Shown here piece by piece: positions 1,070 to 22,912 of a stretch of DNA of 64,000 nucleotides. Made by a program: the position numbers and the translations under genes. Under the pieces are notes generated by a model. It made no database searches and was not told where the DNA came from. It saw nothing but the letters and a program-made list of their open reading frames with translations. The stretch spans positions 22,543 through 86,542 of the IMG/VR virus record IMGVR_UViG_3300027754_000067; one strand, written 5' to 3'. Origin of the DNA: a virus. Numbering within the stretch: the first letter of the stretch is position 1; each line of letters starts with the position of its first letter.

Positions 1070-1206
1070 TTGATTGAGCGGTGGGTTGGCGCATACCGAT
1101 TTAAGCACGCCAAAGGATTGCGGCAAACACATTAAAAAACAATAATAGCACTTGACTATCTCTGACATTCTGGTAAGATCAAGCAATCGAAAGGCTGAAA
1201 ACGATC

Positions 1207-1563
1207 GTGGGAACCAATGGAATTGTTTTGGTGCAGAAGGATTTCCATCATCGTAATGGCAAGGACTTTATTATTGCGGTTACTTCAAATGGGATGTGTG
1301 ATAATCTGCTTGAGCTTGCAAAGCAACTTATGAAAACCGCAAAGAAGCGCAATGTGCTGGAAGCATTCGGCAATGCCGTTCCAAATGTCGTCTTCCAAGT
1401 GATGCAAGAAGTTGCGACTGCTACGGATGGCTGGGCTTTTGTTGACATTCTTAATAATGCACAGTTTGTCTCGTATGCGGTAATTCTCCATCCAGCAACA
1501 GGAATGGTGCAGCGTTGGGAAGGGAATCTGGATGAGTTCCTCGGACAAGAAGAGCTTTCCTGA
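1207..1563 (+). CDS. hypothetical protein
   Basis: ORF downstream of its own promoter. Confidence 0.65.
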   Translation: MGTNGIVLVQKDFHHRNGKDFIIAVTSNGMCDNLLELAKQLMKTAKKRNVLEAFGNAVPNVVFQVMQEVATATDGWAFVDILNNAQFVSYAVILHPATGMVQRWEGNLDEFLGQEELS

Positions 1564-1604
1564 AATCCTTTGACTTCCAACCTCAGAAACAGTAAGGTAA
1601 TCAC

Positions 1605-1760
1605 ATGAGCAACGCCAACAAGAAGATCCATATGTTCCTCAAGGGTGGTCTTTACACGGTTTGTGGTCTTGACATTCTTACCACCAATGTAAAGCTTACT
1701 TGTGGCACGGAGCGTATCAGCTGCAAGAATTGCGCCAAGACTAAGGCGGCAAACATCTAA
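1605..1760 (+). CDS. small Cys-rich protein (51 aa)
   Basis: Leaderless promoter; H..CG and CKNC motifs. Confidence 0.6.
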   Translation: MSNANKKIHMFLKGGLYTVCGLDILTTNVKLTCGTERISCKNCAKTKAANI

Positions 1761-1806
1761 AAATTAATCCTTTGACTAATCCAGCAAGATAGGATAAGGT
1801 AAGACC

Positions 1807-2136
1807 ATGAAGACGACGAGCAATGTTTGGACGACCCTTTTCATTGACAACGACAACTGCGCTCAGTACATCAATGTGTTTGTAACGGAACTGGATGCTG
1901 TAAGAAGCGTTGGTCTTGAAATGGCTGATTGGCTTGAAATGCATGAAAATTATCCTGATGAAGCACTCGACAGACTTGCAGAGAAGATCAATGAATGCGA
2001 TTATTACGCAGCATTGGAAATCTGGAATGATTGGCAGGGTGAACATGGCACGGGTATTGAAATCTCTATTGAAGAGCACCCTTTGTGTACTGATATTTCT
2101 TTGCCACCTCGTTGTAATCGCAAAGTAAAGGTTTGA
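1807..2136 (+). CDS. hypothetical acidic protein, paralogue of 2215..2538
   Basis: Shared ADW...L...IN...Y..A...WN pattern. Confidence 0.7.
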   Translation: MKTTSNVWTTLFIDNDNCAQYINVFVTELDAVRSVGLEMADWLEMHENYPDEALDRLAEKINECDYYAALEIWNDWQGEHGTGIEISIEEHPLCTDISLPPRCNRKVKV

Positions 2137-2214
2137 CAAATCCAGCAAGATAGGATAAGGTAGAGACAGTTGAACTGTAACACAAACGGCTGAAACAGAG
2201 AAAGATCATAAACA

Positions 2215-2538
2215 ATGTTGTTTTTTGTTGCATACACTCACTGTTATGGTACTGACGTTTTTGTTTATCCTAATGAGGATATTGCCTACAAGGGTGCTTG
2301 CAAGATTATTGCTGATTGGTTTGATGATCTTGATTTTTTTGCTGATGATCGGATTGATGAACTTCGTGATTTGATTAATGCTGGTAGCTATTTTCCTGCG
2401 GTTGTGCTATGGAATGAGCTTAGCGGTGATTTTGATCTTCAAGAGAGCATCACTGTTACTTGCAGTGAGATGATTACAGAGGTTGAAATCCCTTTTATCA
2501 AGGATGAATCAACGGAGCAGGAAGAAGATTCTGAGTAA
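2215..2538 (+). CDS. hypothetical acidic protein, paralogue of 1807..2136
   Basis: Same shared pattern; ends EEDSE. Confidence 0.7.
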   Translation: MLFFVAYTHCYGTDVFVYPNEDIAYKGACKIIADWFDDLDFFADDRIDELRDLINAGSYFPAVVLWNELSGDFDLQESITVTCSEMITEVEIPFIKDESTEQEEDSE

Positions 2539-2629
2539 AAGAATGGTTTGACTCTGGAATGGTGATCTGATATAACAGAGACAGTTGAACGGTAACTCAA
2601 ACGGCTGAAACGGAAAAGGATCAAAGACG

Positions 2630-2857
2630 ATGAACACCTCTCTTAAGCTTGGTACTCATGCGGTTATGGTTTCGGACATCATTTCTCCGATTCTGGATGC
2701 GGAGGGTTATCCGCAGTACAGTCTTCGTCAGGGTGACAAGGTGGTTGTTACTTCTCTGGAGCCTTTGATGGTGCGTGGCAAGGAGAATCATCTTTCTGCG
2801 ATTGTGGAGCCTGATTTCTTTAAGACCACCAAGGGTCGTCCTGTAAAGATCGGCTGA
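2630..2857 (+). CDS. small protein with KGRP (AT-hook-like) motif, paralogue of 4318..4662
   Basis: Shared LG.HA..VSD...V.V.SLEPL...FKTTKGRP. Confidence 0.7.
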   Translation: MNTSLKLGTHAVMVSDIISPILDAEGYPQYSLRQGDKVVVTSLEPLMVRGKENHLSAIVEPDFFKTTKGRPVKIG

Positions 2858-2974
2858 TTCGGGTTCTGGTGGGATGGCGCATACCAATCGAATAACGCCA
2901 AAGATTCTGCGGCAAACACATTAAAAACAATATTATTGGTTGACTTATCCAGCCAGAAAAGGTATAACTTTCTC

Positions 2975-3250
2975 ATGGAACCAACTAAAAGCGACATTTC
3001 CAGGATGGAACAATCAGCTAATATCATGGCTGATATGATTGACATGGCTTTTAATAAAGCCAAGACCATGTCTTTGACTTCTCGGACAAAGGAGGTCATG
3101 CAAGGATTGATGGATGAATCATTTAAGGAAATCAACTCACCTTTCTTTGAATCCCGTCAAGAACTTAGTGAATGGTTTCAAAAGCATATGAATCATATTG
3201 AGATTCAAACCCGTGCACGCTTTGAAAAACTGCGTGCAAAAAATCTCTGA
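2975..3250 (+). CDS. hypothetical protein
   Basis: Start reassigned to the leaderless ATG 6 nt after TATAAC. Confidence 0.65.
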   Translation: MEPTKSDISRMEQSANIMADMIDMAFNKAKTMSLTSRTKEVMQGLMDESFKEINSPFFESRQELSEWFQKHMNHIEIQTRARFEKLRAKNL

Positions 3251-3300
3251 ATGTAAAAAAATACATTGACATAATCATCTAAATCAGGTATAAACAAAAC

Positions 3301-3729
3301 ATGAGTGACAGAGAAGGTTTTAACGAGTGTTTTGATTGGTTTGACGAGATGCAATCTATTTCAGATGATGTCAATAAACTTATTACCGGCAATCCTTCTC
3401 TTCTGGATGTTTATGTAGAACTTCCAAAGAATAGGTTTGACAAGGTTAGAGGGCAAGTATATAAGATCGTTGAAAGCGATATCCACAAGTATGCTTCTCT
3501 GTTTATTGCAGAGAGTAAGACAAATGAATTGGTTATTGACATTAGTCCAACAAAGCATCCAATGTGTGCTCGATGCAAGGCACCAAGGGAAGATGCAAAG
3601 CTTAGGCCGTGGCTCAAGGGAACAGATGATGACCTCATTTGTTTCCGGTGTGATGAAGCACTAATGGCATGGGTCGCAAAGGGAAACAAGATCGAAAATC
3701 TCCCAATTAAAATCCAAAAGAATGTTTGA
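3301..3729 (+). CDS. Zn-finger protein resembling the IleRS C-terminal zinc domain
   Basis: CARC-x(~20)-ICFRC arrangement. Confidence 0.5.
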   Translation: MSDREGFNECFDWFDEMQSISDDVNKLITGNPSLLDVYVELPKNRFDKVRGQVYKIVESDIHKYASLFIAESKTNELVIDISPTKHPMCARCKAPREDAKLRPWLKGTDDDLICFRCDEALMAWVAKGNKIENLPIKIQKNV

Positions 3730-3760
3730 CAACAAACCCTAACTCGGATATAAATAAAGC

Positions 3761-3955
3761 ATGAAGACCTCACCTGATGCAGTTGTTAAGAACTTTGCTC
3801 CTGATTCTGACCTTTTGTTGATTACAATTGGGGATTGGAAGATTAATATTGGTAGGGATGAAGATGGTAGAACCCAGGTGGTGATAATTGATACCATTGA
3901 AGGTTCTGAAACTTCTTATATCCTTGGCGAAGAGGGTGAGTCACAAAAGGTTTGA
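3761..3955 (+). CDS. hypothetical protein
   Basis: Leaderless promoter plus ORF. Confidence 0.6.
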   Translation: MKTSPDAVVKNFAPDSDLLLITIGDWKINIGRDEDGRTQVVIIDTIEGSETSYILGEEGESQKV

Positions 3956-4007
3956 CATTTGAATCAAATCACGCTAGATTAGGTTCATAAGAAAGGCAAC
4001 CAACACA

Positions 4008-4214
4008 ATGGCTCTTCACAGTTCACACAAGAAGATTCTTGATAGTTTCTATTCTGGCAGCAAGCAGGTTGTTTCTGATTATGACGAGATCCCTTCTTCT
4101 GTTCGCAATTCTTTGGAAAAGGTGAAGTTCACTGAAACCCTTTGGTGTGATTCGGTGCGTTACCTTAACGATCTTCAAACCAAGGATCTTATTGCTCGCC
4201 GGGGTAGCTGGTAA
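4008..4214 (+). CDS. hypothetical protein
   Basis: Promoter, RBS and ORF. Confidence 0.6.
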   Translation: MALHSSHKKILDSFYSGSKQVVSDYDEIPSSVRNSLEKVKFTETLWCDSVRYLNDLQTKDLIARRGSW

Positions 4215-4317
4215 AAGAAAAAAGGTTTGACAACTGGATCGGGTTCTGATAGATTAGGAATGTAAGTAAGGGATACGAAACCAAAAACGTCTGAGTGTTT
4301 GAAAGGTAATAAACAAA

Positions 4318-4662
4318 ATGGCTACTACGATTAAGTCTCTTTCTCTTGGTGTTCACGCTATTCTGGTGTCTGATGTTGCTGTTGATGGTGGCAGTCTTCT
4401 TGCGGGGACCAAGGTTTTTGTTTCTTCACTGGAGCCTCTTGCGATTTCGACTGCGGAGGTTTCTGGCATTCTGGTTCCTCGTGAGTCGTTTAAGACCACC
4501 AAGGGTCGCCCGAAGAAGATTGTTGGTGCGGTTGCTGCCCCGGCATCTGTTGCCGCCTCTGGTGAGGCTTCTGGTGAGTCTGCGATGGATCTTTCTGTTG
4601 ATGGTGTGATGGGTTTCACTCCAACGGTTGACGAGATTCTTTCTGAGTGTTCGATGGGCTGA
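4318..4662 (+). CDS. small protein with KGRPKK AT-hook-like motif
   Basis: Paralogue of 2630..2857. Confidence 0.7.
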   Translation: MATTIKSLSLGVHAILVSDVAVDGGSLLAGTKVFVSSLEPLAISTAEVSGILVPRESFKTTKGRPKKIVGAVAAPASVAASGEASGESAMDLSVDGVMGFTPTVDEILSECSMG

Positions 4663-4726
4663 ATGGCGGGTCAAACCAGAGGGGAGCGCATTCTGGGTCA
4701 AAGATTTAACGCTCAATTTTAAGATT

Positions 4727-4800
4727 GCCCATGTACGCCAACTGGTCGAGCGGAGATTTTCAAAAATTCTTGCATGTAGATTCGAATTCTATCATGGGCA
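4727..4800 (+). tRNA. atypical tRNA-Leu(CAA) with short variable arm, possibly degenerate
   Basis: Acceptor stem GCCCATG/CATGGGC; D-loop with TGG; anticodon arm AGATT-TTCAAAA-ATTCT (one mismatch); T arm GTAGA-TTCGAAT-TCTAT. Confidence 0.7.
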
Positions 4801-4874
4801 CAACAGAATAATTGCGGCAAACATCTAAAAATTAATCATTTGACTTCTCAATCAACAAAGGGTAAGGTAAGAGC

Positions 4875-5540
4875 ATGAAGAAGATCACTGGAACGGAACT
4901 GAAGAAGATTCTGGCTAAACACAAGCTATGGCTTGATGGAAAGGGAGGAGCCCGTGCAGACCTCTCGGGTGCAAACCTCACGGGTGCAAACCTCACGGGT
5001 GCAAACCTCAATGGTGCAAATCTCACAGTTGCAGACCTCACGGGTGCAAACCTCACGGGTGCAATCCTCACGGGTGCAATCCTCACGGGTGCAAACCTCA
5101 ATGGTGCATACCTCGAACGTGCAGACCTCACGGATGCAATCCTCACGGGTGCAAACCTCGAATGTGCAAACCTCGAATGTGCAAACCTCGAATGTGCAGA
5201 CCTCACGGGTGCAGACCTCTCGGGTGCAAACCTCACGGGTGCAGACCTCTCGGGTGCAAGCCTCTCGGGTGCAAACCTCACGGGTGCAGACCTCACGGAT
5301 GCAATCCTCACGGGTGCAAACCTCGAATGTGCAAACCTCACGGGTGCAGATCTCAAGGATGCAAATCTCACAGTTGCAGACCTCACTGGCACGATTCTTG
5401 ATAAGGACAAGAAAGAGAATAAGACAGAGAAGCAGCCGGAAGTTGGTTCAGTCAAGTCTGAAAACCTTCGATCAGAGTTTGAAGCTCTTGCCAAGAAGCA
5501 TGGTTTGCAGATTACTTGTCTGGAATTCAAGATGATTTAA
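4875..5540 (+). CDS. pentapeptide-repeat protein
   Basis: Long run of A(N/D)LTG repeats; N-terminal HKLWL motif. Confidence 0.95.
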   Translation: MKKITGTELKKILAKHKLWLDGKGGARADLSGANLTGANLTGANLNGANLTVADLTGANLTGAILTGAILTGANLNGAYLERADLTDAILTGANLECANLECANLECADLTGADLSGANLTGADLSGASLSGANLTGADLTDAILTGANLECANLTGADLKDANLTVADLTGTILDKDKKENKTEKQPEVGSVKSENLRSEFEALAKKHGLQITCLEFKMI

Positions 5541-5579
5541 TCTTTTGACTTAATCAACACAATCAGATAAGGTAAGAAC

Positions 5580-5786
5580 ATGAAGAAGATCGTAAAGCAT
5601 ACTGAAGAGAACTGCGAGCATCTTGCGAGTCTTTTGGTGGACTCTTGGGAGATTGAAGACATTGTTTCTTATGCGATTGAGAAGCTTAAGGAGCATTATC
5701 TAGCTGATAAGGAAGCTTTTGATTATGATTCCGTTGTAATGATGGAGGAAGATGAGTCTGATATTGATTCAAGTCAAGTCAATTAA
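5580..5786 (+). CDS. hypothetical acidic protein
   Basis: Leaderless promoter plus ORF. Confidence 0.65.
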   Translation: MKKIVKHTEENCEHLASLLVDSWEIEDIVSYAIEKLKEHYLADKEAFDYDSVVMMEEDESDIDSSQVN

Positions 5787-5863
5787 ATTGAGAAAGTTTT
5801 GCGGCAAACACATTAAAAATAATACTGTTTGACTTCTGATTCAAGAAAGAATAAGGTAAGACC

Positions 5864-6070
5864 ATGAACAACATCTGGGATTCAGTCGTGATCGGGAAGT
5901 CTTATATGTTTGACATGGAATATCTTAACAATAACTCTCGTCGAACTGAAATGATTGAAGGAACAGTCAAGGATAAATTGATCCAATCTGATGGAAGACA
6001 CTACATCGTCCTAAACAATAACAGTGCCGTCCATCTGGAACAAGTCTCCCGTTTGATTGGCCCCTTCTGA
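5864..6070 (+). CDS. hypothetical protein
   Basis: Leaderless promoter plus ORF. Confidence 0.6.
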   Translation: MNNIWDSVVIGKSYMFDMEYLNNNSRRTEMIEGTVKDKLIQSDGRHYIVLNNNSAVHLEQVSRLIGPF

Positions 6071-6124
6071 GTTAATCAAAAACAAACACTGGACTTCATC
6101 CAGAAGAAAGTATATAGTCTTTCC

Positions 6125-6550
6125 ATGGCTCACTTCAACAAGTACCTGGATATGGCCATTTCCTTCGCTCGTGAACACCAACACGATGATTCTCTTGCTG
6201 CTTTCGTTACTTCAATCATTGTGTCTGGTGGTTCCGTATTGTCGGTAGGATTCAATTCTCGCACCAATACAAGTCTCCAGCGAAAGTATATGAGAAACCC
6301 TCATTGCAATAGCATTCATGCTGAAGTTGATGCAATCTTAAATGTACGAAAGAAGATTGACTTAACCAATTCCAAGATTTATACTATTCGACGCTTGCGG
6401 TCTGATACTGTGGAAAACCCTAATATTGGTTGCGCCAAGAACTGCCCTATGTGTGCTGCCATTATTTACGATTATGGTATCAAGCGTTCATATTATACCA
6501 TTGACAACCATAACTTTGGTGTCATGAAGGTTGTTGATCCGAGAGCCTGA
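6125..6550 (+). CDS. cytidine/dCMP deaminase-family protein
   Basis: HAE and CPMC zinc motifs; VLSVGFN. Confidence 0.85.
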   Translation: MAHFNKYLDMAISFAREHQHDDSLAAFVTSIIVSGGSVLSVGFNSRTNTSLQRKYMRNPHCNSIHAEVDAILNVRKKIDLTNSKIYTIRRLRSDTVENPNIGCAKNCPMCAAIIYDYGIKRSYYTIDNHNFGVMKVVDPRA

Positions 6551-6594
6551 TTTAATCCTTTGACTTCTGAACCAACAAAGGATAAGGTAAGAGC

Positions 6595-6951
6595 ATGAAG
6601 AAGATCACTGAAACGGAAATGAAGAGCATTCTTGCAAACCACAAACTTTGGGTTGAAGGAAATGGAGGAAAGTGCTCTGGCGATGCGTTTGAAGGTGCAG
6701 ATTTGCGTGGTGCCGATTTTCGTGATGCAAATCTGAAATTTGCTACGTTTTTGGGAGCAGATCTACGAGATGCAGATTTCAGGAATGCAGATCTCGTTGA
6801 TACATGGTTTGTAGATGCAGATTTGAGGAATGCAAATTTCCGAAACTCTAACCTTACCATTGCAAGACTAATGGGTGCAAACATTCAAGGTGCAAACTTT
6901 GGCGATGCAATTCTTAGTGGCACGGTTTTTGAAAAGCCACCAAGTATCTGA
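6595..6951 (+). CDS. pentapeptide-repeat protein
   Basis: AD(L/F)Rx repeats. Confidence 0.9.
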   Translation: MKKITETEMKSILANHKLWVEGNGGKCSGDAFEGADLRGADFRDANLKFATFLGADLRDADFRNADLVDTWFVDADLRNANFRNSNLTIARLMGANIQGANFGDAILSGTVFEKPPSI

Positions 6952-7057
6952 AATTCACACAAATTTCCAACCTATCTGATTTAATCCTTTGACTTTTCTA
7001 GCCTGACCTGATATAACAGGGATAGTTCAACGGCAACAAACAAAAGGGATAAAGAAC

Positions 7058-7270
7058 ATGGCGATTGCATATGTGAACTTCATTCAATGGGACACCACTA
7101 CCGACGAAGATCCTGCTGGTCTTGAGAAGCACGATCTTCCTACTTGTTTTGAGTTTGAGCTTGACTTGAATGATTTTATTAGCGAGGATGCTATTTCTGA
7201 TTGGATTACGGGTGAGTTGAGTGATGAGACCGGTTGGTGTGTTTCTGGATTCAACTATGTGATCAAGTGA
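7058..7270 (+). CDS. hypothetical acidic protein
   Basis: Promoter plus ORF; LSDETGWCV motif. Confidence 0.65.
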   Translation: MAIAYVNFIQWDTTTDEDPAGLEKHDLPTCFEFELDLNDFISEDAISDWITGELSDETGWCVSGFNYVIK

Positions 7271-7284
7271 AGGAGAAAAAGAAA

Positions 7285-7470
7285 ATGAAGCCTCTTGTAA
7301 AGCTTTCTGGTGTTGACGGCAATGTTTTTTCGATTATTGGGACGATGACACGTTCCATGAAGGCGCAAGGTCTTTTTAAGGAGGCTCAGGAGTTTTCGAG
7401 GAAGGCAATGGATTGTCATAGTTACGATGCTGTTTTGCAGCTTTGCTTTGAGTATGCCGATATTAGGTGA
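7285..7470 (+). CDS. small conserved phage protein
   Basis: AGGAG RBS; VKLSGVDGNVFSIIG...SYD pattern. Confidence 0.7.
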   Translation: MKPLVKLSGVDGNVFSIIGTMTRSMKAQGLFKEAQEFSRKAMDCHSYDAVLQLCFEYADIR

Positions 7471-7672
7471 TTAGCCTCACCAGAAGACATAGGATGCCCG
7501 TTAAAGGCTTCTGGTGTCAGAGATGACAGCTTATAGCTTGCCCGATTCTGATGCCTTTAATGAGGCGTTTAATGAGTCGGGCAAGTTATATGCCATTGCG
7601 AGATAGAATTCTGCGGCAAACACCTAAAAATTAATCCTTGACTTCTCAATCAACAAAAGGTAAGGTATTCTC

Positions 7673-8227
7673 ATGAACTTTGAAGACGAACTCTCTGCTA
7701 TCCGTTCTGAGGCTGTTAAAAACATTGAGGGTAGAGCGGATAGTCTCTTAGATATTCGTAATGAACATATTGGCACACCCGTTGCAGAGTTCATTGAAAG
7801 AATCATTGGCTGGTTTAATGATCCACAGAAGAGACTGCTTGGCTATCAAATCGGAGAATATATCTTTTGGGACGATGAATTCAACTTCTTAAAGAAGCTT
7901 TGTCAATTTGTTTCTCATGAAATGCTGGACGATGGTTGTTTCATTGTCAAATGGATGAAACCAGACTATGATTACATTGAGCATGAAATTAATGGAAAAG
8001 TATTAAAGCTTCCTAATGCTGTTTATGTTGATGGCCGTATTAGGTTGAAGGAAACTGACAAGGATGATCCAGAAGGAAGACCAGAAATCCATTACGGCGG
8101 AGATCTTGGCACACAAGATGCATCAGTCCTGCTTGAAGCAATGGATATTCTAGAGCAGCGGGATCTGGAACGCCATAATAGAATGATTGATCTCCAGAAC
8201 CGTCTTAAAGATCTTCGGAAAACCTGA
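7673..8227 (+). CDS. hypothetical protein
   Basis: 184-aa ORF with leaderless promoter. Confidence 0.75.
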   Translation: MNFEDELSAIRSEAVKNIEGRADSLLDIRNEHIGTPVAEFIERIIGWFNDPQKRLLGYQIGEYIFWDDEFNFLKKLCQFVSHEMLDDGCFIVKWMKPDYDYIEHEINGKVLKLPNAVYVDGRIRLKETDKDDPEGRPEIHYGGDLGTQDASVLLEAMDILEQRDLERHNRMIDLQNRLKDLRKT

Positions 8228-8278
8228 TTGACTGATTTTTCTTTTGACTTCTCCACCAACAAAAGGTAAAGTAATCCC

Positions 8279-12216: not shown

Positions 12217-12345
12217 TTTAACAGTGGGGAGCGCATACTTAAAACGCTCAAGTTTTGCGGCAAACACAATAAAAAACAATATTGTTTGACTCTTCTGACA
12301 AACCCTGATAGTATCAAAACATCGAAAGGGCAAAGGAACAAAACA

Positions 12346-12699: not shown

Positions 12700-12833
12700 C
12701 AAATAGCGTACCAAGGTGGGGAGCGTATACCAATCCAATAACGCTCAAGGGATGCGGCAAACATCTTAAATTTAATCCTAGACTTCTCCCAAGCAACCTG
12801 ATAGAGTGATTGAAGAAAGGCAAGGGTAACTCA

Positions 12834-13142: not shown

Positions 13143-13274
13143 TAAGTAGGATGCCAAGTGGGAGGGCGCATACTTATCACGCCCGAATATTGCGGCAAAC
13201 ACCTTAAAAATAATACTTTACTTCTCCGAGAGCATCCTGTAAGATTATCTACATCAACCAAGAAAGAAAAAACA

Positions 13275-14056: not shown

Positions 14057-14271
14057 TCGGTTGACTCTTTGATCTGTTTCTGATAGTATCATTTTCATCG
14101 GTAGGAACAAAGAAAGGCCGTCAACAATGACTCTCTTCATCTCTCTCTTCATTGTGGTTTCTTTTGCTGGTCTTAAGATTGTTCGATTGACCGATTAATG
14201 GTTTGACTTTCTAACGAGCATCCTGTAAGATCAGTCAACATCAACGGACAACAGCAAGGAGAATAAAGATC

Positions 14272-14523
14272 ATGGCTTCTATTCACTACAAGTCTTTTGT
14301 TGATTTTGTCAACACTGGCAAGACTCAGCGGCATGGAGCTTTGGTTATGAAGGGTGATACGGTTGTTTCATATAGCACGGTGATTGCGAAGGTTGACCGT
14401 GCGAACAAGGTTATTGACTTTTGCCCCAAGAAGTATTCTGTTACTACTTCTCGGCATCAGAGTGCGGTAACGACTGGCCTTTCATTCCTTACTTCTGGGT
14501 GGAGCTTGAACCATAGCCTGTAA
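14272..14523 (+). CDS. conserved phage protein (SYST.IA..YSVTTSRHQ)
   Basis: AAGGAG RBS; recognisable motif. Confidence 0.75.
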   Translation: MASIHYKSFVDFVNTGKTQRHGALVMKGDTVVSYSTVIAKVDRANKVIDFCPKKYSVTTSRHQSAVTTGLSFLTSGWSLNHSL

Positions 14524-14906
14524 GGCTTCCAGAAGCCATTTAAAGGCTTCCTAGATCCGATCGTGCCTGATAGTGGCATGGGATGCAGGAAGCCTTTAAA
14601 GAGGCTTATAGAGCTTGATGCAAAGGTCAAACCAAGTTTTGCGGCAAACACCTTAAAATTAATCCGTTGACTATCTCACCAGAATAACCTATAACAAGGA
14701 CATGGAAGAGATGAGCAATACCACAACGGCAGAAGAAGAGGAATACTTCCTGCGGCTTCAGCAAGAAGACAAGGATCATGCCAAGTGGCTTGAGCAAAAT
14801 CCACTCTTTGAAGATGATCCAGATCCTCAGAAGTATTGATCGTTTTATTCTTGACTCTTAGATCTACTTCTGGTAGAGTGATTGAAGAAAGCGAGAGGGA
14901 AACATC

Positions 14907-15155
14907 ATGGTTCAGTTCTCTGATGGCTTCAAGGTTTCGATTGGGGATACCGTTGGATTCTTTACTCGCCATGGTTCCAATGGTAGAGGTGAAGTAATTG
15001 GCTTCTCCCGCAGCAGGGGAGCAACCACTGTGCTTGTCAAGCCCAATGCAGAAACCAATTTCGGATCTTATGACCGTTGGCCCTTGAAGGATGGTGGCTT
15101 TTATTCACGCATGGAATCCGAGGGTCTCTTTGGGGGAGAGATTTTCCGCAAGTAG
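14907..15155 (+). CDS. hypothetical protein
   Basis: Promoter, RBS and ORF. Confidence 0.6.
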   Translation: MVQFSDGFKVSIGDTVGFFTRHGSNGRGEVIGFSRSRGATTVLVKPNAETNFGSYDRWPLKDGGFYSRMESEGLFGGEIFRK

Positions 15156-15229
15156 CATACCAAGTTTTGCGGCAAACACCTTAAAATTAATCCTTTGACT
15201 TCTCAACCAACAAAGGGTAAGGTAAGAAC

Positions 15230-15418
15230 ATGGAAGCAAACCTCAGGCAGTATCAGATTGATGCAATCAACCAAGGATATCCTTGGGAGTGTGCTTGCGG
15301 AGAACTACATCGCACGAGAGAATCAGCAGTTAGTTGCCGCAAGTGTCGGCAGTACTGCATGGATCATGCCAATAGATCCAATCCCATTGATCTCCGCACC
15401 ATCAATCTTAACAAGTAA
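15230..15418 (+). CDS. small Zn-ribbon-like protein
   Basis: CACG..H...CRKC. Confidence 0.65.
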   Translation: MEANLRQYQIDAINQGYPWECACGELHRTRESAVSCRKCRQYCMDHANRSNPIDLRTINLNK

Positions 15419-15779
15419 GCTAATAGTGTAAAGCAAAAAATTAATTAATGGAAAAACCGGGAAGCGCATGGTATAAACGCTTATTATTCCGATCGCAAAA
15501 GAAAATTAATTCTGCGAACACTATATATCCAGTGAAAGCTAATTGACTCTGCCTAAGAATGAACGGCGCTGTATGCTAGATATGCATGACGGCAGACAAG
15601 AAAAGTTTTCAATGCCTTGAATCAGTTAGAATAACATAACTCCAGCCTGAAGTCAATCAATTTAAACATATTGAAACGACCAAGGGCTTTCGGTGTTTGT
15701 TGCCAATGCAAAAACAATGCCGCAAACATACCAATTTTAATCCTTTGACTCTTCAAGCAGAATCAAGTAAGGTAAGAAT

Positions 15780-15965
15780 ATGAAGAGCCGATTGAATCAA
15801 ATCAAGGCGTCACTCACTGCACCTCGCATGATCGGAAACCACAAGGAATGCGGTGGTGAGGTGTTCTATCACTCTGGCCGCAGTTTTGCTTATCGTCAGT
15901 GCAGTCAGTGTGGCCAAAACGGAATGCATGGAACCCTTAGCCCCACACTTGAAACAGAGCGATAA
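15780..15965 (+). CDS. small Zn-ribbon-like protein
   Basis: HKECGG...CSQCG. Confidence 0.6.
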   Translation: MKSRLNQIKASLTAPRMIGNHKECGGEVFYHSGRSFAYRQCSQCGQNGMHGTLSPTLETER

Positions 15966-16028
15966 AAGAACTTCTCTGATTTAATCCTTTGACAATCCAA
16001 CCAACAAAAGGTAAGGTAAGGTAAGAGC

Positions 16029-16244
16029 ATGAACAACGAGATCTCTGAGTATGAAGGCTGGGAGAATGATTACGATAACTCCCATGGTGACACTCAAGGT
16101 GATACCTTTACCGACGATGGTGCCGATCCCGGTGGAGACAACTACGATGATTCAATGGATGGTGACTTCGACTCTGGCATGGCAAGTGCAGGTTGGGGTA
16201 CAGATGAATCTTATGGATATTTCGGAAACGATGAAGATTTCTGA
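16029..16244 (+). CDS. very acidic small protein
   Basis: D/E-rich, no Lys or Arg; DSMDGD.DS..ASAGWGTDE.YG. Confidence 0.75.
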   Translation: MNNEISEYEGWENDYDNSHGDTQGDTFTDDGADPGGDNYDDSMDGDFDSGMASAGWGTDESYGYFGNDEDF

Positions 16245-16367
16245 ATAATCCCTTGACTCTTCCTTAGCTTCCTGATACTCTCTCTTAACTGAAAACAAAG
16301 ACACAAACCAAGTCCAGAGATAAAAGAATCTCTTGACAATCCAAACAGGAAAGTGTAGAGTAGAACA

Positions 16368-16913
16368 ATGAAGATCACCGCTAACGATCTGGTGGCCGCT
16401 GTTTCTAACGCTTCTGGCTTCTGTACGGTAACGACCCGTACTGTACCCCGAATGAAGGGTGGCAAGAGCAACCCTTATGCCAATCGTGTTTGGAATCGTA
16501 CTGAGCGATGCGGAATGTTTGGCGTCTCTTATGAGAATGCCGTCCGCTCCCAGCGGACTCGTGAAGGCCACGAGGAGCCTAGCAGCTTCCATGCCGAGTC
16601 TCTCTGGAAGGGTGCTGGAAAGCGTCTCAATCGGAACATCGTGGAGAACGTGAACACTGGCAAGCTTTACATGGTGATGTATCCCGTCCGTGCAAACGGT
16701 ATGCCAGCGAACCGCAGCACGGAATGGTTTGTCGATGATCGCCCTGCAACGGAGCAGGAGGTGGCAGAGATCAAGCAATACCTGTACCAGCCTTCCTTTA
16801 ATCCTGCTGCAAAGCAGGAGACTGAAGAAGCGGTAGCTTGGCGCACCTTTTGCCTTGAGAATGTCGAGGTTGTTAACTGTGAGGGTAACACCTTTGAGGT
16901 GTCTTACAGCTAG
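16368..16913 (+). CDS. conserved hypothetical phage protein
   Basis: 181-aa ORF with its own promoter. Confidence 0.75.
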   Translation: MKITANDLVAAVSNASGFCTVTTRTVPRMKGGKSNPYANRVWNRTERCGMFGVSYENAVRSQRTREGHEEPSSFHAESLWKGAGKRLNRNIVENVNTGKLYMVMYPVRANGMPANRSTEWFVDDRPATEQEVAEIKQYLYQPSFNPAAKQETEEAVAWRTFCLENVEVVNCEGNTFEVSYS

Positions 16914-16920
16914 CAACCAT

Positions 16921-16970
16921 CATGCCAAGGACAAGGGTTCTGCCATAAACGGAACCCTTGTCTCGGCATC
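16921..16970. repeat. long hairpin, paralogous to 18555-18600
   Basis: ATGCC..GACAAGGGTTC/GAACCCTTGTC..GGCAT. Confidence 0.7.
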
Positions 16971-17167
16971 CTACCAGAACCCTCCTAAGCGCCTTTAAAC
17001 GGCCCTAGAAGGCTCGCAAACGCCAACAACGGGCAATCTGCCATTGGCGCAGCAAGAGGCATAGAATAGCCTTTAAATCAGTCATGCAAAGGCAATGCCA
17101 AACTCTGCGGCAAACACACTAAATTTAATTCATTGACTCTTCAATCAGAATCCAGTAAGGTAAGAGC

Positions 17168-17422
17168 ATGAACAGCAGAGATCATGAGGAACTAACAGAG
17201 ATCCACGAGAAGATGCTTGAACTCGTGAATGATGTTGAAAGAATCATGCGACGAGAAGGAGGGATTGAATATGAGCGAGCCAAGGGATATTGGCTTGCAA
17301 ACATTAAAATGGGATTGACAAACAATCATGGGTATCTTAGTATGCCCATGTTCAACATGGAAACTGCAATCAGTGCGCTGGAACCATGCGAGGATGAAGA
17401 TCAGGAAGAAGATTCCGATTAA
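17168..17422 (+). CDS. hypothetical protein
   Basis: Leaderless promoter; ends EEDSD. Confidence 0.7.
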   Translation: MNSRDHEELTEIHEKMLELVNDVERIMRREGGIEYERAKGYWLANIKMGLTNNHGYLSMPMFNMETAISALEPCEDEDQEEDSD

Positions 17423-17493
17423 GTTAATCCCTTGACTCTCCCTTCAAACCCTGATAATCTCTCCTAACTGGAACGGAACAAAGGAGCAACAAA

Positions 17494-17724
17494 ATGAAGT
17501 GCTGCAAGGTTTCTATCTCTGGAATGATGCACTCCCATGATTGCCTTGACAATCCAAGGGAATATGTCTATAGCTTCTATCAGGATTCCGACGACTCCGA
17601 CGATGATACTATCCAAACGGCTCACGTTTCAATCGTCGAGCAAAACGAAGAGCCCGAATCCGATCATGGCACCATGATTGCATCAGATGATTCCGAGGAT
17701 GACAACGACGAAGATTCCGATTAA
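17494..17724 (+). CDS. acidic hypothetical protein
   Basis: AAGGAG RBS; ends DEDSD. Confidence 0.6.
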   Translation: MKCCKVSISGMMHSHDCLDNPREYVYSFYQDSDDSDDDTIQTAHVSIVEQNEEPESDHGTMIASDDSEDDNDEDSD

Positions 17725-17861
17725 GTTAATCCCTTGACTCTGCAATCCAAGTCTGATATAACAGAATAGTCGGAGGGAAGAACAAAACAAAGAGCAGCAA
17801 AAGAATCACTGGACTTCTGAATCGCAATCTGGTAAAACAGTCTCTAGAAGGAATCAGACAA

Positions 17862-18179
17862 ATGAACTTCACCATCCCGAATCGTATCATTGTCTCTAAC
17901 TCCCTTGGTTTCCGCTATCATGCGAAGAATCCCGGCAAGCTCTTTGCCATGTCTGTCAAGGGACAGGATCGTGAAACCGTGTTCACGGTGCTTTCACTCA
18001 AGGGAAGCATGGGCCGACCTTGCAAGGGTGATACCAAGGGTTTCGGAGTCAAGACTCATGCCGTGATCCGAAACGGATTCACTGGCCGAAAGTCCACCGT
18101 GCTTCTGTCAACCCTTGTTGACCGCAATGTGCGATATGTTGGCATGAAGCATGAAGTGATCGCCTACTTTAGCCGGTAA
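17862..18179 (+). CDS. basic hypothetical protein
   Basis: Promoter, RBS and ORF. Confidence 0.7.
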   Translation: MNFTIPNRIIVSNSLGFRYHAKNPGKLFAMSVKGQDRETVFTVLSLKGSMGRPCKGDTKGFGVKTHAVIRNGFTGRKSTVLLSTLVDRNVRYVGMKHEVIAYFSR

Positions 18180-18306
18180 GCAATAACTGTACCAGTGGGG
18201 AGCGCATACTTAAAACGCTCAAATTTTGCGGCAAACACCTTAAAATTTAATACCTTGACTCTCCCTTCAATCTCTGATAGAGTGATTGAAGAAAGCGAGA
18301 GACTGA

Positions 18307-18546
18307 ATGACAACTTACATCCTCAAGAATGGTGAGATTGTTTTGTTTCTTGTCATGGCAACGGAACCTATTGGTGGATGCCGTTTACCTTATCTTAAAA
18401 CATTCTCGGAGGATGAAGCATTGAATGCCGCAATGACGCTTGAATCTGATTGGGGCGCTGGTGCAAGGGTAAAGATTTGTGAGCACTACATCTCCCAAAG
18501 AATGTGGGAACACAAGTACAAAACCCCTTGGCCTATCGCTCAATAG
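18307..18546 (+). CDS. hypothetical protein
   Basis: Promoter plus ORF. Confidence 0.55.
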   Translation: MTTYILKNGEIVLFLVMATEPIGGCRLPYLKTFSEDEALNAAMTLESDWGAGARVKICEHYISQRMWEHKYKTPWPIAQ

Positions 18547-18554
18547 CAAACACC

Positions 18555-18600
18555 ATACCAAGGCAAGGGTTCCAATCCAACGGAACCCTTGCTCTGGTAT
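18555..18600. repeat. long hairpin, paralogous to 16921-16970
   Basis: ATACC..GCAAGGGTTCC/GGAACCCTTGC..GGTAT. Confidence 0.7.
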
Positions 18601-18807
18601 CCCTCTCTAATATGCCTCTCTCTGGCATCAGGAACGCCCAACAGAGCCGTTAAATCCTTTCAACGGACAATCTACCGTTAGGGAAATGAGAGCCCAAGAA
18701 ACGCTGCAAATCTGTCAATAGGAATAGCAGGGCAAACACCTTAAAATTAATCCTTTGACAATCTAACAGGAATCCAGTAAGATCAAAACAGATCAAAGAG
18801 AGCCTAG

Positions 18808-18834
18808 ATGAACAAAAGCCGAGACGGCCCCTAA
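18808..18834 (+). CDS. micro-ORF MNKSRDGP
   Basis: Own promoter; first of three tandem units. Confidence 0.55.
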   Translation: MNKSRDGP

Positions 18835-18932
18835 TAAAATCCTTTGCAAACCTCTGGAGTGCAGACCTCAATTAAATGCCTTGACTCTTCAATCAGAATC
18901 CAGTAAGATCAGAACATAACAAAGGAACCTAG

Positions 18933-18959
18933 ATGCAAAAGATCCGAGACGGTCCCTAA
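18933..18959 (+). CDS. micro-ORF MQKIRDGP
   Basis: Own promoter; AAAGGA RBS. Confidence 0.6.
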   Translation: MQKIRDGP

Positions 18960-19070
18960 TAAAACTCTGTGCAAACTACACGGGTGCAAACCTCAATCAA
19001 TGCCTTGACTTCTCATTCAGAATCCAGTAAGATCAGATCACAAAGCAGATAACTAAAAGGAACCAACTAG

Positions 19071-19100
19071 ATGCAAAAGATCCGAGACGGTCCTATCTAA
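19071..19100 (+). CDS. micro-ORF MQKIRDGPI
   Basis: Own promoter; AAAGGA RBS. Confidence 0.6.
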   Translation: MQKIRDGPI

Positions 19101-19166
19101 ACTTCCTACAATCAATGGTTTGACATACCGGGGAGCGCATGGTATAAACGCTCATTACTAAGAAAA

Positions 19167-19255
19167 GCCCGAATGGTGGAATCGGCAGACACCGGAGACT
19201 TAAAATCTCTTGCTGCGAAAGTAGCGTACCAGTTCAAGTCTGGTTTCGGGCACCA
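19167..19255 (+). tRNA. trnL: tRNA-Leu(TAA)
   Basis: Full cloverleaf; anticodon arm GGAGA-CTTAAAA-TCTCT; long variable arm; encoded CCA; TTGACA-17-TATAAA promoter at 19120-19148. Confidence 0.95.
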
Positions 19256-19327
19256 TAAAAGAGATTTTAAGTCTCTTGACTTAAAACAAACAATCCTGTA
19301 AGCTAAGAACATCAAGGGAGCAAAACA

Positions 19328-19498
19328 ATGCAAACCAAGAAGCAAGCCATCAAGGATTTTCGGGAATTTCTCTTGCCTTCCATCCCAAACAATGATACCA
19401 TCGCCAAGCAAGAAGCATGGAATAATTATACTGATGCTCTTTGCAAGAGCCGTTTTATTACCCTTCGCCAATATGAAAACTGGACTAACCCCTTCTGA
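19328..19498 (+). CDS. small conserved phage protein (EAWNNYTDALCK..QYENW)
   Basis: GGGAG RBS plus ORF. Confidence 0.7.
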   Translation: MQTKKQAIKDFREFLLPSIPNNDTIAKQEAWNNYTDALCKSRFITLRQYENWTNPF

Positions 19499-19564
19499 TT
19501 TAATCCCTTGACTATCCAGTGAGAGTCTGATAAAGTCAGGAAAGATCAGGGAGCAAAAGAAACC

Positions 19565-19765
19565 ATGAAGATCAACCATCGCACTGGATCTGTCAAGCGT
19601 TTGGACCATCACGAGAACTATCGCTTTAACAAGTCTGGCTTGAAGGAGGAAGGTAACACGGTTCGCCGCTGCATGGATCGTGCCGCAATCAAGAACAGCC
19701 TTGAAGGCAACGATGGCACGCTCTTTGCTCGCAGCAAGGAAGGAAACCCTTGGAACTTCGATTGA
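19565..19765 (+). CDS. hypothetical protein
   Basis: Promoter, RBS and ORF. Confidence 0.6.
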   Translation: MKINHRTGSVKRLDHHENYRFNKSGLKEEGNTVRRCMDRAAIKNSLEGNDGTLFARSKEGNPWNFD

Positions 19766-19850
19766 TTTGCAAGTAGCATACCAAGTTTTGCCGTAAACAT
19801 ACCAATTTTAATCCTTTGACAATCCAACCAACAAAGGGTAAAGTAAGAAC

Positions 19851-20150
19851 ATGGAAACGACGAACAAGGTTTGGACAGAGGCCGCAATCGTCTCTCTGCT
19901 CCAGAGCAACAATCGTGCCGTCGAAAGGGCAATCCTGGCAATCTTTGCTCGGCAAACGGAGGATGAGAAGTCAACGGAATGCACCCGGCACGAGAACTCT
20001 CGTGGATTCTCTGCGGCTGATGCCCGTACCGGCTCCTACATGGCACGCTGGATTAGCAGCGGAAAGCGTCTCGATGGAAAGTTTCTTGACAAGGCCCGAA
20101 AGATGGCCGTCAAGTACCGCAAGCAACTGGTAGAGGTTGCCAACGGCTAG
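19851..20150 (+). CDS. conserved phage protein (RQTEDE...N..GF...DA)
   Basis: Recognisable motif. Confidence 0.75.
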   Translation: METTNKVWTEAAIVSLLQSNNRAVERAILAIFARQTEDEKSTECTRHENSRGFSAADARTGSYMARWISSGKRLDGKFLDKARKMAVKYRKQLVEVANG

Positions 20151-20361
20151 CAAACAGCATACCAGTGGGAGGGCGCATACTTTATCACGCCCATTGCCGT
20201 CAACAAAACTCTGCGGCAAACAAACAAATTTAATTACTTTACTTCATTCCCTAATCATGCTAATGTCAGGACACATCAGACAACGGCAACCAACAAAAGC
20301 AAGCACAAGGGAATCAAAACAATCCCTTGACAATCCAACCAACAAAGGGTAAAGTAAGAAC

Positions 20362-20832
20362 ATGGAAACCAAGAGCAACACGGTTCACATCTTTCAGGCG
20401 GCTGGTCTCGGCGTCGGTCCCTTCAAGCTTCACCATGTATCCGGTGAGGGAGGAAAGTGCCAGTACTGTGCCACTCCGATTCTGTGGCGTTTCTATCTCA
20501 ATGGCATTGACGGCTCTACTTTCTTCGTTGGATCGGATTGTGTCATGAAGACCGGCGATGCGGGACTCATGAAGATTGTTGACGCAGAAGTCAAGCGCCG
20601 AATGGCAGAAGCCCGAAAGGTCCGTGAGGATGCCAAGCTGGCATCTGTCAAGGAAAGCATGAAGGATGCCAACGTGCTTGCCAAGCTGGCAACCCTCCCA
20701 CACCCGAATGGTTACTATGCCCGCAATGGCAAGACTCTTGCAGACTATGCCTCGTGGATCGTGAAGTACGGTGGCAAGACTGCAATGCTCAACCTTGGCA
20801 AGAGTATTGCAAAGGCTACCGTCTCGGCCTAG
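20362..20832 (+). CDS. Zn-binding hypothetical protein
   Basis: CQYC...FFVGSDCV motif. Confidence 0.75.
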   Translation: METKSNTVHIFQAAGLGVGPFKLHHVSGEGGKCQYCATPILWRFYLNGIDGSTFFVGSDCVMKTGDAGLMKIVDAEVKRRMAEARKVREDAKLASVKESMKDANVLAKLATLPHPNGYYARNGKTLADYASWIVKYGGKTAMLNLGKSIAKATVSA

Positions 20833-21060
20833 TCAATCTGACAAACGGTGGGAAGGCGCATACCGGGAATCACGCCTTAGACGGCTCTAATAGCCCCTCC
20901 AGTGACCGCAAACCACAAGGGACCATAAAGGGTAGCAGAACAAAACAGAAGCCAACCAAAAGGCTCCCAAGAGATCGGGCAAACACCATGCCAAACTCTG
21001 CGGCAAACATACCAATTTTAATCCTTTGACAATCCAACCAACAAAGGGTAAAGTAAGAAC

Positions 21061-22905: not shown

Positions 22906-22912
22906 CATGCCA

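Follow-up and report, generated by a model that had tools for sequence, protein, structure and literature searches.

The virus record analyzed here comprises 86,542 bases, of which a 64,000-nt stretch forms the window (in whose coordinates positions are given unless stated otherwise). The early region of the record, which has dozens of sigma-70-like promoters, holds 13 copies of a small repeated motif, all 13 on the + strand and none on the - strand; 11 fall inside the window and two lie 5' of it, at record positions 4678 and 13069. Each copy has the layout P1a-GGG(A)-P2a(..GCG)-YAT-P1b-L3(..A)-P2b(CGC..), in which two stems are interleaved within 27-39 nt. The copies at 1079..1113 (P1 CGGT/ACCG, P2 TTGGCG/CGCCAA) and 2867..2900 (P1 TGGT/ACCA, L1 GGGA, P2 TGGCG/CGCCA) both lie 9 nt past a TGA stop, and a promoter cassette begins 7 and 9 nt after them, respectively. 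The copy at 4676..4714 (P1 CCAGA/TCTGG, P2 GAGCG/CGCTC, L3 of 13 nt) follows a TGA stop by 13 nt and is itself followed, after 12 nt, by tRNA-Leu(CAA) at 4727..4801 (+ strand). A minimal copy of 27 nt at 12223..12249 (P1 AGT/ACT, P2 GAGCG/CGCTC; TGA stop 6 nt before) recurs with identical pseudoknot sequence at 18194..18220 (TAA stop 14 nt before), and in both cases the promoter cassette begins 8 nt after. The same distance to the cassette is found at 12715..12746 (P1 GGT/ACC, P2 GAGCG/CGCTC; TAG stop 15 nt before), where UAU replaces CAU, and at 13156..13184 (P1 AAGT/ACTT, L1 GGGA, P2 GGGCG/CGCCC; stops 6-13 nt before), while 21 nt separate the cassette from the copy at 20164..20192 (P1 AGT/ACT, L1 GGGA, P2 GGGCG/CGCCC; TAG stop 13 nt before). 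The copies at 15456..15482 (P1 ACC/GGT, P2 AAGCG/CGCTT) and 20846..20878 (P1 CGGT/ACCG, P2 AAGGCG/CGCCTT) lie 24 nt past a TAA and 13 nt past a TAG stop. The copy at 19125..19153 (P1 ATACC/GGTAT, P2 GAGCG/CGCTC) has no long upstream ORF and precedes tRNA-Leu(TAA) (19167..19255, + strand) by 13 nt; the relative L052 has this same pseudoknot, likewise adjoining a tRNA. Window copies are dispersed singly, at least 441 nt apart. Coordinates and stems of all 11 are as given in a preliminary description of this DNA, which also correctly placed nine of them 6-15 nt past a stop (by listed ORF ends) and two just 5' of tRNA genes.

That description had read the motif as a covarying H-type pseudoknot on the sense strand, and covariation among viral matches upholds this reading. 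With stem 2 held fixed, stem 1 pairs in 100 of 116 viral matches versus 5 of 120 bacterial or archaeal ones; with stem 1 held fixed, a complementary stem-2 partner is present in 203 of 236 distinct viral matches. GGG, GCG-YAU and A-CGC are unchanged across viral copies. Stem 2 is invariant and G+C-rich (GCG/CGC plus the GGG strand), and stem 1 is short (3-5 bp) and variable. Chance is excluded by the excess of the core pattern (5 matches versus 0.28 expected) together with the full descriptor, which has 111 matches in 0.99 Mb of other viral loci and none in reversed sequences. A covariance model built from the copies of other phages finds, at E<=1, 12 of the 13 copies of the record and no further site in it. 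Searched against Rfam 15 at E<=10, the motif matched no family, preQ1-I included, and it can be regarded as an uncatalogued RNA pseudoknot of about 30 nt which spans tiny microviruses to a giant freshwater phage. Nested minimum-free-energy folds are weak (-3.9 to -9.3 kcal/mol) and not unusually stable against shuffles (z-scores -1.5 to +0.5), so the structural case is built on covariation rather than on predicted energy. Directly after stem 2, C occurs in 0 of 86 copies, which leaves the GGG strand unpaired; this +1 position is A in 65 of the 86, and +1 to +16 are A-rich with few G. The GGG strand may lie in the deep groove of the invariant GCG/CGC pairs, and G.U and Y.A pairs would close both stems, with one junction A left over.

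Across viral loci the motif is found about 5-15 nt past same-strand stop codons, with a sharp lower limit of about 5 nt, and 12 of the 13 record copies trail an ORF of at least 45 codons by 6-24 nt. This spacing fits recoding pseudoknots, and the refined fold (1-nt junction, 2-nt L1, A-rich L3) is like that of luteovirus and retrovirus frameshift pseudoknots. A signal to the terminating ribosome, for stop-codon read-through, frameshifting or control of termination and re-initiation, is nevertheless very unlikely. Slippery heptamers are not in excess (8/264 versus 7/251 in the control), the three reading phases (65, 65 and 60) show no preference, and TAA is the commonest stop (88, versus 37 TGA and 28 TAG). 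The in-frame extension has a median of 19 codons, the ribosome-side stem 1 is the weak stem, and some copies have no ORF before them, or come after a tRNA, in one case at a distance of 9 nt. Recoding is therefore unsupported.

The motif is more consistently attached to the gene before it than to the gene behind it. Among 80 loci retrieved solely for the similarity of their SSB proteins, the motif core is present in every one of the 53 distinct SSB 3' flanks, though the downstream gene varies; among the flanks listed, the sequence beyond the motif and the next gene both differ, with mosaic joints directly behind the motif. In other phages it also follows exonuclease and endonuclease genes, and in microviruses the major capsid gene. 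The region after the capsid gene carries an origin or priming signal in phiX174- and G4-type microviruses, and a motif in this place in single-stranded DNA phages could suggest a DNA-level element, whether a single-strand origin, a priming signal or a recombination joint. The mosaic joints and the cassette-sized deletions between strains in contigs from RNA runs would fit such an element as well. We consider it extremely unlikely, however, since in double-stranded DNA phages the motif almost always lies closely behind an ORF of its own strand and orientation, and 13 one-strand copies in one early region are not suggestive of origins. Moreover, G.U outnumbers A.C at the variable stem-2 pairs (11 versus 3), which points to the RNA of the motif strand.

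On its other side, the motif is followed by an exact GCGGCAAAC promoter cassette 7-21 nt after 8 of the 13 record copies and by a tRNA 12-13 nt after two; in other phages the gap to a following tRNA is 4-6 nt (4 cases). A promoter or tRNA in this position means that the next gene does not carry the motif in its primary 5' leader. The pseudoknot accompanies only about half of this phage's promoter cassettes. Hairpin-plus-U terminators are not in excess in the early region (16 found versus 16.8 expected), and the pseudoknot is the sole recurrent structured element found behind early genes. A non-canonical terminator or pause signal for the host RNA polymerase, separating one-gene early units, would explain copies that precede the next promoter in a region without canonical terminators. 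Several copies (e.g. 4676, 12223 and 18194) continue with two or three purines and then a U-run, and phiX174 has a weak terminator after the capsid gene, behind which the motif lies in microviruses. We nonetheless judge this reading distinctly unlikely, as the A-rich sequence past the motif has no general U-tract, the stem-2 hairpin is weak, and the motif is absent from bacterial genomes and was seen at no convergent operon end, always between co-directional genes. Of the termination or antitermination signal suggested in the preliminary description, the first half is weakened by the lack of a general U-tract, and the second fits poorly with a motif placed ahead of the next promoter.

The motif is widespread in uncultivated phages and restricted to phages. 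It occurs in microviruses, in RecT/Exo/SSB phages, in phages whose genes are distantly N4-like and in the DnaE-encoding phage fragment studied here; carriers range from a microvirus of about 5.6 kb to a phage whose size is estimated at several hundred kb. Loop bases are the same throughout, the smallest genomes included, which points to either a common rather than strain-specific target or a self-sufficient fold. In one alternative reading, the motif would be a binding site, decoy or sponge for a conserved host protein or a small molecule, which the 13 early copies would titrate; an RNase, a defense nuclease, or a ribosomal or RNA-chaperone protein may be the partner. The invariant unpaired GGG, the YAU and the L3 A at the stem junction resemble a specific pocket, topology and size are like those of the preQ1-I and guanidine-III aptamers, and both the phage specificity and the high copy number within early transcripts are in keeping with this reading. 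Such a role is unlikely, however, in that it needs neither a site 5-15 nt past a stop nor a bond to one upstream gene, and in most other carriers a locus contains just one or two copies. The class of the downstream gene is inconsistent, which does not suit a usual riboswitch. The antitoxin mimic (ToxI or CptI of type III systems) proposed earlier is a special case of the decoy and is not supported, the single, dispersed copies forming no tandem array of the type III kind and their loop bases being the same in very different phages.

In another alternative, the motif would be a new class of very small self-cleaving ribozyme. It would cleave the RNA that contains it, at or close to the YAU junction, and thereby divide read-through early transcripts into single-gene pieces, a role proposed for hammerhead and twister ribozymes in other phages. 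Covarying stems around some ten invariant junction and loop bases are a typical ribozyme pattern, conserved G's and A's sit at the junction, the short stem 1 would allow the cleavage products to separate, and a phage-specific motif independent of host and phage proteins is compatible with catalysis. On the other hand, no Rfam 15 ribozyme model matched, the sequence names no cleavage site, and no natural self-cleaving class is known to be as small as this motif, with its 27-39 nt and two stems. Two contigs assembled from RNA libraries (12816-13273 and 17701-18262) cross copies uninterrupted, although DNA carry-over may account for them and assembled contigs of RNA runs cannot display transcript ends. 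Overall, we regard a ribozyme as unlikely.

The motif is best read as a cis-acting RNA element belonging to the 3' end of the upstream gene. We tentatively propose, as a possibility held at well below even confidence, that it is a host-independent 3'-boundary element shielding the upstream message from 3' decay. It would form the first 30-40 nt of the untranslated transcript past the stop codon and fold into a compact H-type pseudoknot after the terminating ribosome departs. Transcription would run on, or the RNA beyond the motif would be cut, either by a host endonuclease or, ahead of a tRNA, by RNase P; 3'-to-5' exonucleases would then halt at stem 2, and the upstream cistron would outlast the RNA behind the motif. 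No phage protein would be required. Several observations argue for such a boundary: the motif travels with the upstream gene in the SSB flanks, and it stands before a promoter cassette or tRNA, where 3' ends are expected, in a region with many promoters, no terminator excess and no other recurrent structure found behind its genes. The strong, invariant stem 2 is on the side which a 3' exonuclease meets first, and the stem facing the ribosome is short and variable. Where only 4-6 nt separate the motif from a tRNA, an RNase P cut would leave a very short tail, presumably too short for an exonuclease to engage. The range of carrier genome sizes suggests host independence, and one phage protein partner common to such different genomes is unlikely. 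There is also a precedent in engineered guide RNAs, to which small 3'-terminal pseudoknots (evopreQ1, mpknot) are appended as protection against 3' decay. Against the 3'-boundary reading, the nested folds are weak and no stabler than shuffles, whereas the known natural 3' stabilizers are long hairpins rich in G+C. Nor does a purely mechanical block account for about ten loop and junction bases that are invariant across very different phages; such a pattern would be more usual for a catalytic core or a specific binding site. The absence from convergent operon ends and the copy 3' of a tRNA instead of an ORF also count against it, as does the lack of use in bacteria (the 5 of 120 pairings above), which is odd for a generally useful stabilizer.

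Among known systems, preQ1-I riboswitches (and likewise guanidine-III and SAM-II) share with the motif the H-type topology, the size and a clustering of conserved bases at the stem junction, in L1, L2 and the last part of an A-rich L3, whereas the motif comes after ORFs and ahead of promoters or tRNAs instead of covering a ribosome-binding site, and has neither a consistent regulated gene nor an Rfam match. ToxI, CptI and the pseudo-ToxI of phiTE are pseudoknotted RNAs of similar size (about 30-36 nt), phage-borne in part, but the motif is not tandem, has no adjacent toxin context, and its loop bases are common to unrelated phages instead of being fitted to one host system. The recoding pseudoknots of BWYV and MMTV (frameshift) and MuLV (read-through) are similar in length (about 28-35 nt), in their interleaved stems, short L1 and A-rich L3, possibly in a one-nucleotide junction, and in starting 5-10 nt past the A-site codon; the motif differs in having no slippery site, frame conservation or leaky-stop preference, in its strong stem being 3' rather than 5', and in occurring in DNA phages at up to 13 copies per genome. 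Hammerhead and twister ribozymes likewise set covarying stems around an invariant core, but the motif is much smaller, falls outside both Rfam families, and its cleavage is putative. With 3' stabilizers (terminator hairpins, REP elements, the RNase III-processed hairpins of T7 early mRNAs and engineered guide-RNA pseudoknots) the motif shares a place directly behind the coding region, as the structure first met by a 3' exonuclease. Its occurrence behind capsid and SSB genes, which are abundantly expressed in well-studied phages, adds to this likeness; yet instead of a long hairpin it forms a pseudoknot whose loop bases are fixed, and it is weak in nested stability, lacks a U-tract and is specific to phages. 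The PeSL (promoter-early stem-loop) cassettes of T4-type phages also repeat a structure and an early promoter between small early genes, with mosaic joints and cassette-sized indels at such sites, whereas here the structure is a conserved pseudoknot which is common to unrelated phages and accompanies about half of the promoter cassettes.

The eleven pseudoknot copies that the preliminary description placed in the window are all borne out in position and in their listed stems, and the same record holds two additional copies ahead of the window, for a total of 13, all on the + strand. Each copy opens with the 5' strand of stem 1 (P1a, 3-5 nt), followed by GGG or GGGA, the 5' strand of stem 2 (P2a, 5-6 nt, ending in GCG), CAT (TAT once) and P1b; the 3' half is made up of an A-rich loop L3 of 3-13 nt that ends in A, and then P2b, which starts with CGC. 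The invariant bases are GGG, GCG, the A and U of the YAU junction and the C of CGC, and the A preceding CGC is retained in 199 of 203 hits. A covariance model derived mostly from copies of other phages recovered 12 of the 13, with no other match at E ≤ 1 in the 86.5-kb record. Open frames of 45 or more codons end 6-24 nt ahead of 12 of the 13 copies in the record, in line with their earlier placement just behind stop codons, and the two copies said to lie just 5' of tRNA genes (2/13) are each followed, 12-13 nt downstream, by a tRNA-Leu gene.

Covariation gives strong support to the motif, which is real, and the proposed H-type pseudoknot is upheld as two interleaved stems, each with compensatory changes. 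For stem 1, IMG/VR was scanned with stem 2 and the loops fixed in the pattern (at least 120 loci). Three or more flanking pairs were present in 100 of the 116 viral matches listed (75 of 89 distinct contexts), versus 5 of the 120 bacterial and archaeal matches listed over an equal gap range, which is chance level. For stem 2, stem 1 and the loops were fixed and the outer stem-2 pairs left free in two patterns (at least 120 loci each); among the matches listed, a complementary P2b lay within 17 nt in 109 of 122 and 94 of 114 distinct stem-1-anchored hits, with at least 11 different outer stem-2 dinucleotides. When only ACGC was used as an anchor, with no pairing filter, the two variable stem-2 pairs were Watson-Crick in 203/208 and 190/208 cases. 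Among the variable stem-2 pairs G.U outnumbers A.C (11 vs 3), which favors an RNA of this strand. In an alignment of 150 sequences 93.9% of cells pair, and the covariation score is 0.611, versus 0.131 for shuffled alignments (0 of 500 reach 0.611) and at most 0.076 for slid partners. Because the rows of this alignment were pre-selected for pairing, with one stem fixed per set, the unfiltered counts are the fairer evidence. Scanning 0.99 Mb of viral loci with the full descriptor yielded 111 instances, compared with 0 after the sequences were reversed.

The base composition around the stems allows a more detailed fold to be proposed. Immediately 3' of stem 2, A occurs in 65 instances, G in 17, T in 4 and C in none (n = 86), and since C never occupies this position, the GGG strand is not drawn into stem 2; positions +1 to +16 are rich in A and poor in G. 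The first G of GGG could pair with the U of YAU and so lengthen stem 1, while the Y of YAU could pair with the conserved L3 adenosine, as U-A or as a C.A wobble, and lengthen stem 2. The resulting fold would have a single junction A; the two-base GG strand would cross the deep groove at the invariant GCG/CGC pairs, with the A-rich L3 probably running along the minor groove of stem 1. Such an arrangement is that of a textbook compact pseudoknot. Its strong invariant half would face the 3' side, and its short variable half the ribosome. Nested folding ranks the stem-2 hairpin (-3.9 to -9.3 kcal/mol) first for 9 of the 11 window copies, with z-scores that are not significant, and folding energy thus gives no support for the structure.

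The position of the motif relative to genes was determined in two sets of viral instances. Of the 108 instances in the first set with a same-strand ORF upstream, 97 have the end of the nearest one at a distance of 3-18 nt, and the next ORF usually starts 4-35 nt downstream of the motif. In a second, more diverse set (203 instances from 199 loci), an ORF of at least 60 codons ends within 80 nt in 153; most often stem 1 begins 5-15 nt after the stop codon, and hardly ever closer than 5 nt. Seemingly distant instances are explained by wrongly called ORF starts or by the ends of loci, and the motif was not seen in a convergent gene arrangement among the instances examined. Linkage to the upstream gene was followed at single-stranded DNA-binding (SSB) protein genes: among 80 loci retrieved solely through similarity of the SSB protein, the motif core is present in all 53 distinct 3' flanks, and both the sequence directly after the motif and the next gene differ among the flanks inspected. 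A core that is constant behind SSB genes and followed by variable sequence indicates that the motif belongs to the upstream gene. In the comparison loci L009 and L497-L576, different downstream genes share a block close to TTYGYATCYATG, start codon included, in the region between motif and ATG, and an A/T-rich hexamer lies about 8 nt upstream; together, block and hexamer may be a promoter with a leaderless start in the SSB lineage. In L106, a relative of this phage, the copy at 2117-2146 is directly followed, about 55 nt downstream, by a tiny ORF (MKNGIRDGP*). The link to tRNA genes is real and minor, with a tRNA within 40 nt in 5 of 315 instances (3.04 Mb of viral loci with 95 tRNAs); four of these lie 4-6 nt upstream of the tRNA and one lies 9 nt downstream.

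The genes that carry the motif are diverse. Upstream genes of the 111 instances fall into 31 protein clusters, the largest of which (51 members) encodes a small SSB-like protein in a RecT/exonuclease/SSB module. Microviridae major capsid proteins account for eight members, and other upstream genes encode exonucleases, an endonuclease VII-like protein and a DUF2201 metallopeptidase-like protein; the last of these has its closest GenBank relatives in N4-like phages (28% identity over half its length). One microvirus record of 7,938 bases holds two core matches 5,564 bases apart, which we read as one copy per genome repeated by circular assembly. In the microvirus loci L018, L035 and L102, a small hairpin (5-bp stem, 3-nt loop) lies between the capsid stop codon and the pseudoknot. 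The motif is absent after the capsid gene of MN311493, the closest GenBank microvirus by capsid protein (60% identity), and is therefore optional in Microviridae. Because carrier genomes range from microviruses to the present phage, a common phage-encoded partner protein is unlikely. The motif is phage-specific and widespread, with at least 120 matches in each of three pattern scans. Two carriers are classed as proviruses. Of the 5 bacterial matches with stem 1, 2 look genuine, in an Akkermansiaceae bin (L133) and a Chloroflexia bin (L149), where the copies may belong to phage contigs or prophages in the metagenome bins. Searches of GenBank phages with the window at 1-20000 and the comparison locus L047 (megablast) found no relatives, and a search with the SSB protein (tblastn) gave no match; no cultured carrier or host emerged from these DNA and protein searches.

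The IMG/VR virus record itself is 86,542 bases long, of which the window covers 22543-86542, and has a CheckV completeness of 24%, which implies a genome of several hundred kb, and DNA of this phage is found repeatedly in freshwater metagenomes from many studies. Small + strand ORFs are densely packed in the first ~22 kb of the window, at a G+C content of about 45-48%; at ~22000-24000 this falls abruptly to about 35%, marking the end of the early region, beyond which larger proteins are encoded, including a DnaE-type polymerase. The family matches of ORFs upstream of the copies were confined to KTSC, DUF7717 and unnamed PHROG families. Pentapeptide-repeat genes, in which a 15-bp DNA unit recurs almost unchanged, are numerous both in the window (301-500, 9700-10000) and upstream of it (record 5479-5800, 11287, 14208 and 21499). 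At window positions 14524-14616, plant microRNA-precursor models matched ~90 bp on both strands with scores below gathering, probably because the stretch forms a long hairpin or palindrome without mismatches.

One strongly conserved promoter cassette is found at over 25 places on the + strand of window 1-21000 and the record upstream, for example at window positions 1119-1180, 1745, 5800, 7612, 8868 and 12256. The cassette starts with GCGGCAAAC, its recurrent form opening TGCGGCAAACA, and continues with an A/T-rich stretch, TTGACT, 17 nt and a TAAGGT/TAAGAT-like box, often with an ATG ~7 nt further on. Its recurrence, together with the frequent ATG ~7 nt past the -10-like box, implies one-gene, often leaderless, early units. 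The -10 boxes of TANNNT type, and start codons that coincide with the transcription start or closely follow it, may point to an actinobacterial host. Scanning with the cassette pattern matched no other viral contig. The motif precedes only some of the cassettes; an exact match to the cassette start follows 8 of the 13 copies in the record, 7-21 nt downstream. A riboswitch acting on the next gene fits poorly with this placement upstream of promoters (8/13) and tRNAs (2/13).

Contigs assembled from four freshwater metatranscriptome runs were compared with the copies. Several of the contigs listed stop shortly before or inside copies (at 12200, 12219, 12738, 13169, 18185 and 18192), one starts within a copy (at 1107) and two span copies (12816-13273 and 17701-18262). 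The comparison indicated no site at which RNA molecules start or stop, and as assemblies of RNA runs alone, carrying no read ends, the contigs do not discriminate between the functional readings. Contigs from the same RNA libraries also join across 1138-1569 and 18262-18770, skipping 430 and 507 bases, which suggests strains that lack one gene cassette, with the joints in cassette regions behind pseudoknot copies.

Several proposed functions find little support in these data. A canonical intrinsic terminator is disfavored on three counts: no such site coincides with the motif, +1 is usually A (65/86) and the stem-2 hairpin is weak. Within window 1-20000, the early region has about as many hairpin-plus-U terminators as chance predicts (16 vs 16.8 expected), and 0 of the 16 terminator-like sites coincide with copies. 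Recoding of the upstream gene likewise lacks support: slippery heptamers are as frequent as in the control (8/264 vs 7/251), distances modulo 3 show no frame preference (65, 65 and 60), TAA is the commonest stop (88 TAA, 37 TGA and 28 TAG), and the in-frame extension is short (median 19 codons). A tandem array as in type III antitoxins such as ToxI or CptI, whose mimicry the preliminary description had raised, is absent, as there are no tandem repeats of ~34-36 nt and the copies are single, with the closest neighbors 441 nt apart. With recoding, a canonical terminator, a riboswitch and a tandem antitoxin disfavored, what is left is an element that would define or protect the 3' end of the upstream message. 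We tentatively rank first an exonuclease barrier at this 3' end, on the basis of the linkage to the upstream gene, the place before promoters and tRNAs, the orientation and the lack of dependence on a phage protein. Ranked second is a new self-cleaving ribozyme, a doubtful reading that fits the invariant junction bases, the weak nested stability and the operon-punctuating layout, and for which no known ribozyme model in Rfam 15 gives a match. A very small (27-39 nt) new ribozyme class, or some other self-sufficient catalytic or ligand-binding pseudoknot, punctuating messages gene by gene across very different phages, is an equally doubtful reading; the putative active site would center on the lone junction adenosine, next to the invariant GGG strand and the conserved L3 adenosine. 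A decoy or aptamer ranks after the ribozyme and seems unlikely, and a non-canonical terminator, next in order, seems less likely still.

The motif is unnamed and undescribed as far as Rfam 15 and the literature searches show. Its suspected novelty is sustained by the lack of any Rfam 15 family at the copies (E ≤ 1, window 1-24000), of any match at E ≤ 10 in the stretch with three copies (window 12200-13210), and of any family at the gathering score in 133,854 bases of ten other motif-bearing loci. Literature searches on phage pseudoknots, near stop codons or in metagenomes, and on Microviridae-intergenic and exoribonuclease-resistant pseudoknots yielded no account of it, and searches with the core string returned unrelated primers only. 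PMC10690425 reports 10,006 candidate viral structured RNAs, thousands of them unnamed in its supplements, and the motif could stand as an unnamed candidate in those supplementary tables. If truly undescribed, it would count among the unnamed structured RNAs of phages with the widest distribution, with carriers from single-stranded DNA microviruses to a phage fragment rated by CheckV at 24% of a complete genome. Because its loop bases are the same in very different phages, yet it is absent from bacterial genomes, it must touch something universal: the ribosome, RNA polymerase, RNA decay or its own chemistry. Solving the motif would reveal how phages, within read-through transcription, fix where individual messages end and how long they last, and function is directly testable in vitro. 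If self-cutting or ligand-binding, the RNA would found a new class of ribozyme or aptamer, of a size that permits full mutational and structural study. The motif could also serve as a compact, portable 3' module for synthetic biology, and it would offer a simple sequence marker of phage DNA and gene ends in metagenomes.

Two known kinds of pseudoknot invite comparison. Frameshift and read-through pseudoknots are spaced ~5-9 nt from the recoded codon, and the motif lies at a similar spacing, with its peak at 5-15 nt from the stop codon. The preQ1-I family gives no match at E ≤ 10 in window 12200-13210; preQ1-I-like riboswitches are 5'-leader aptamers that control a ribosome-binding site or terminator, whereas the present motif precedes promoters, tRNAs and varied downstream genes.
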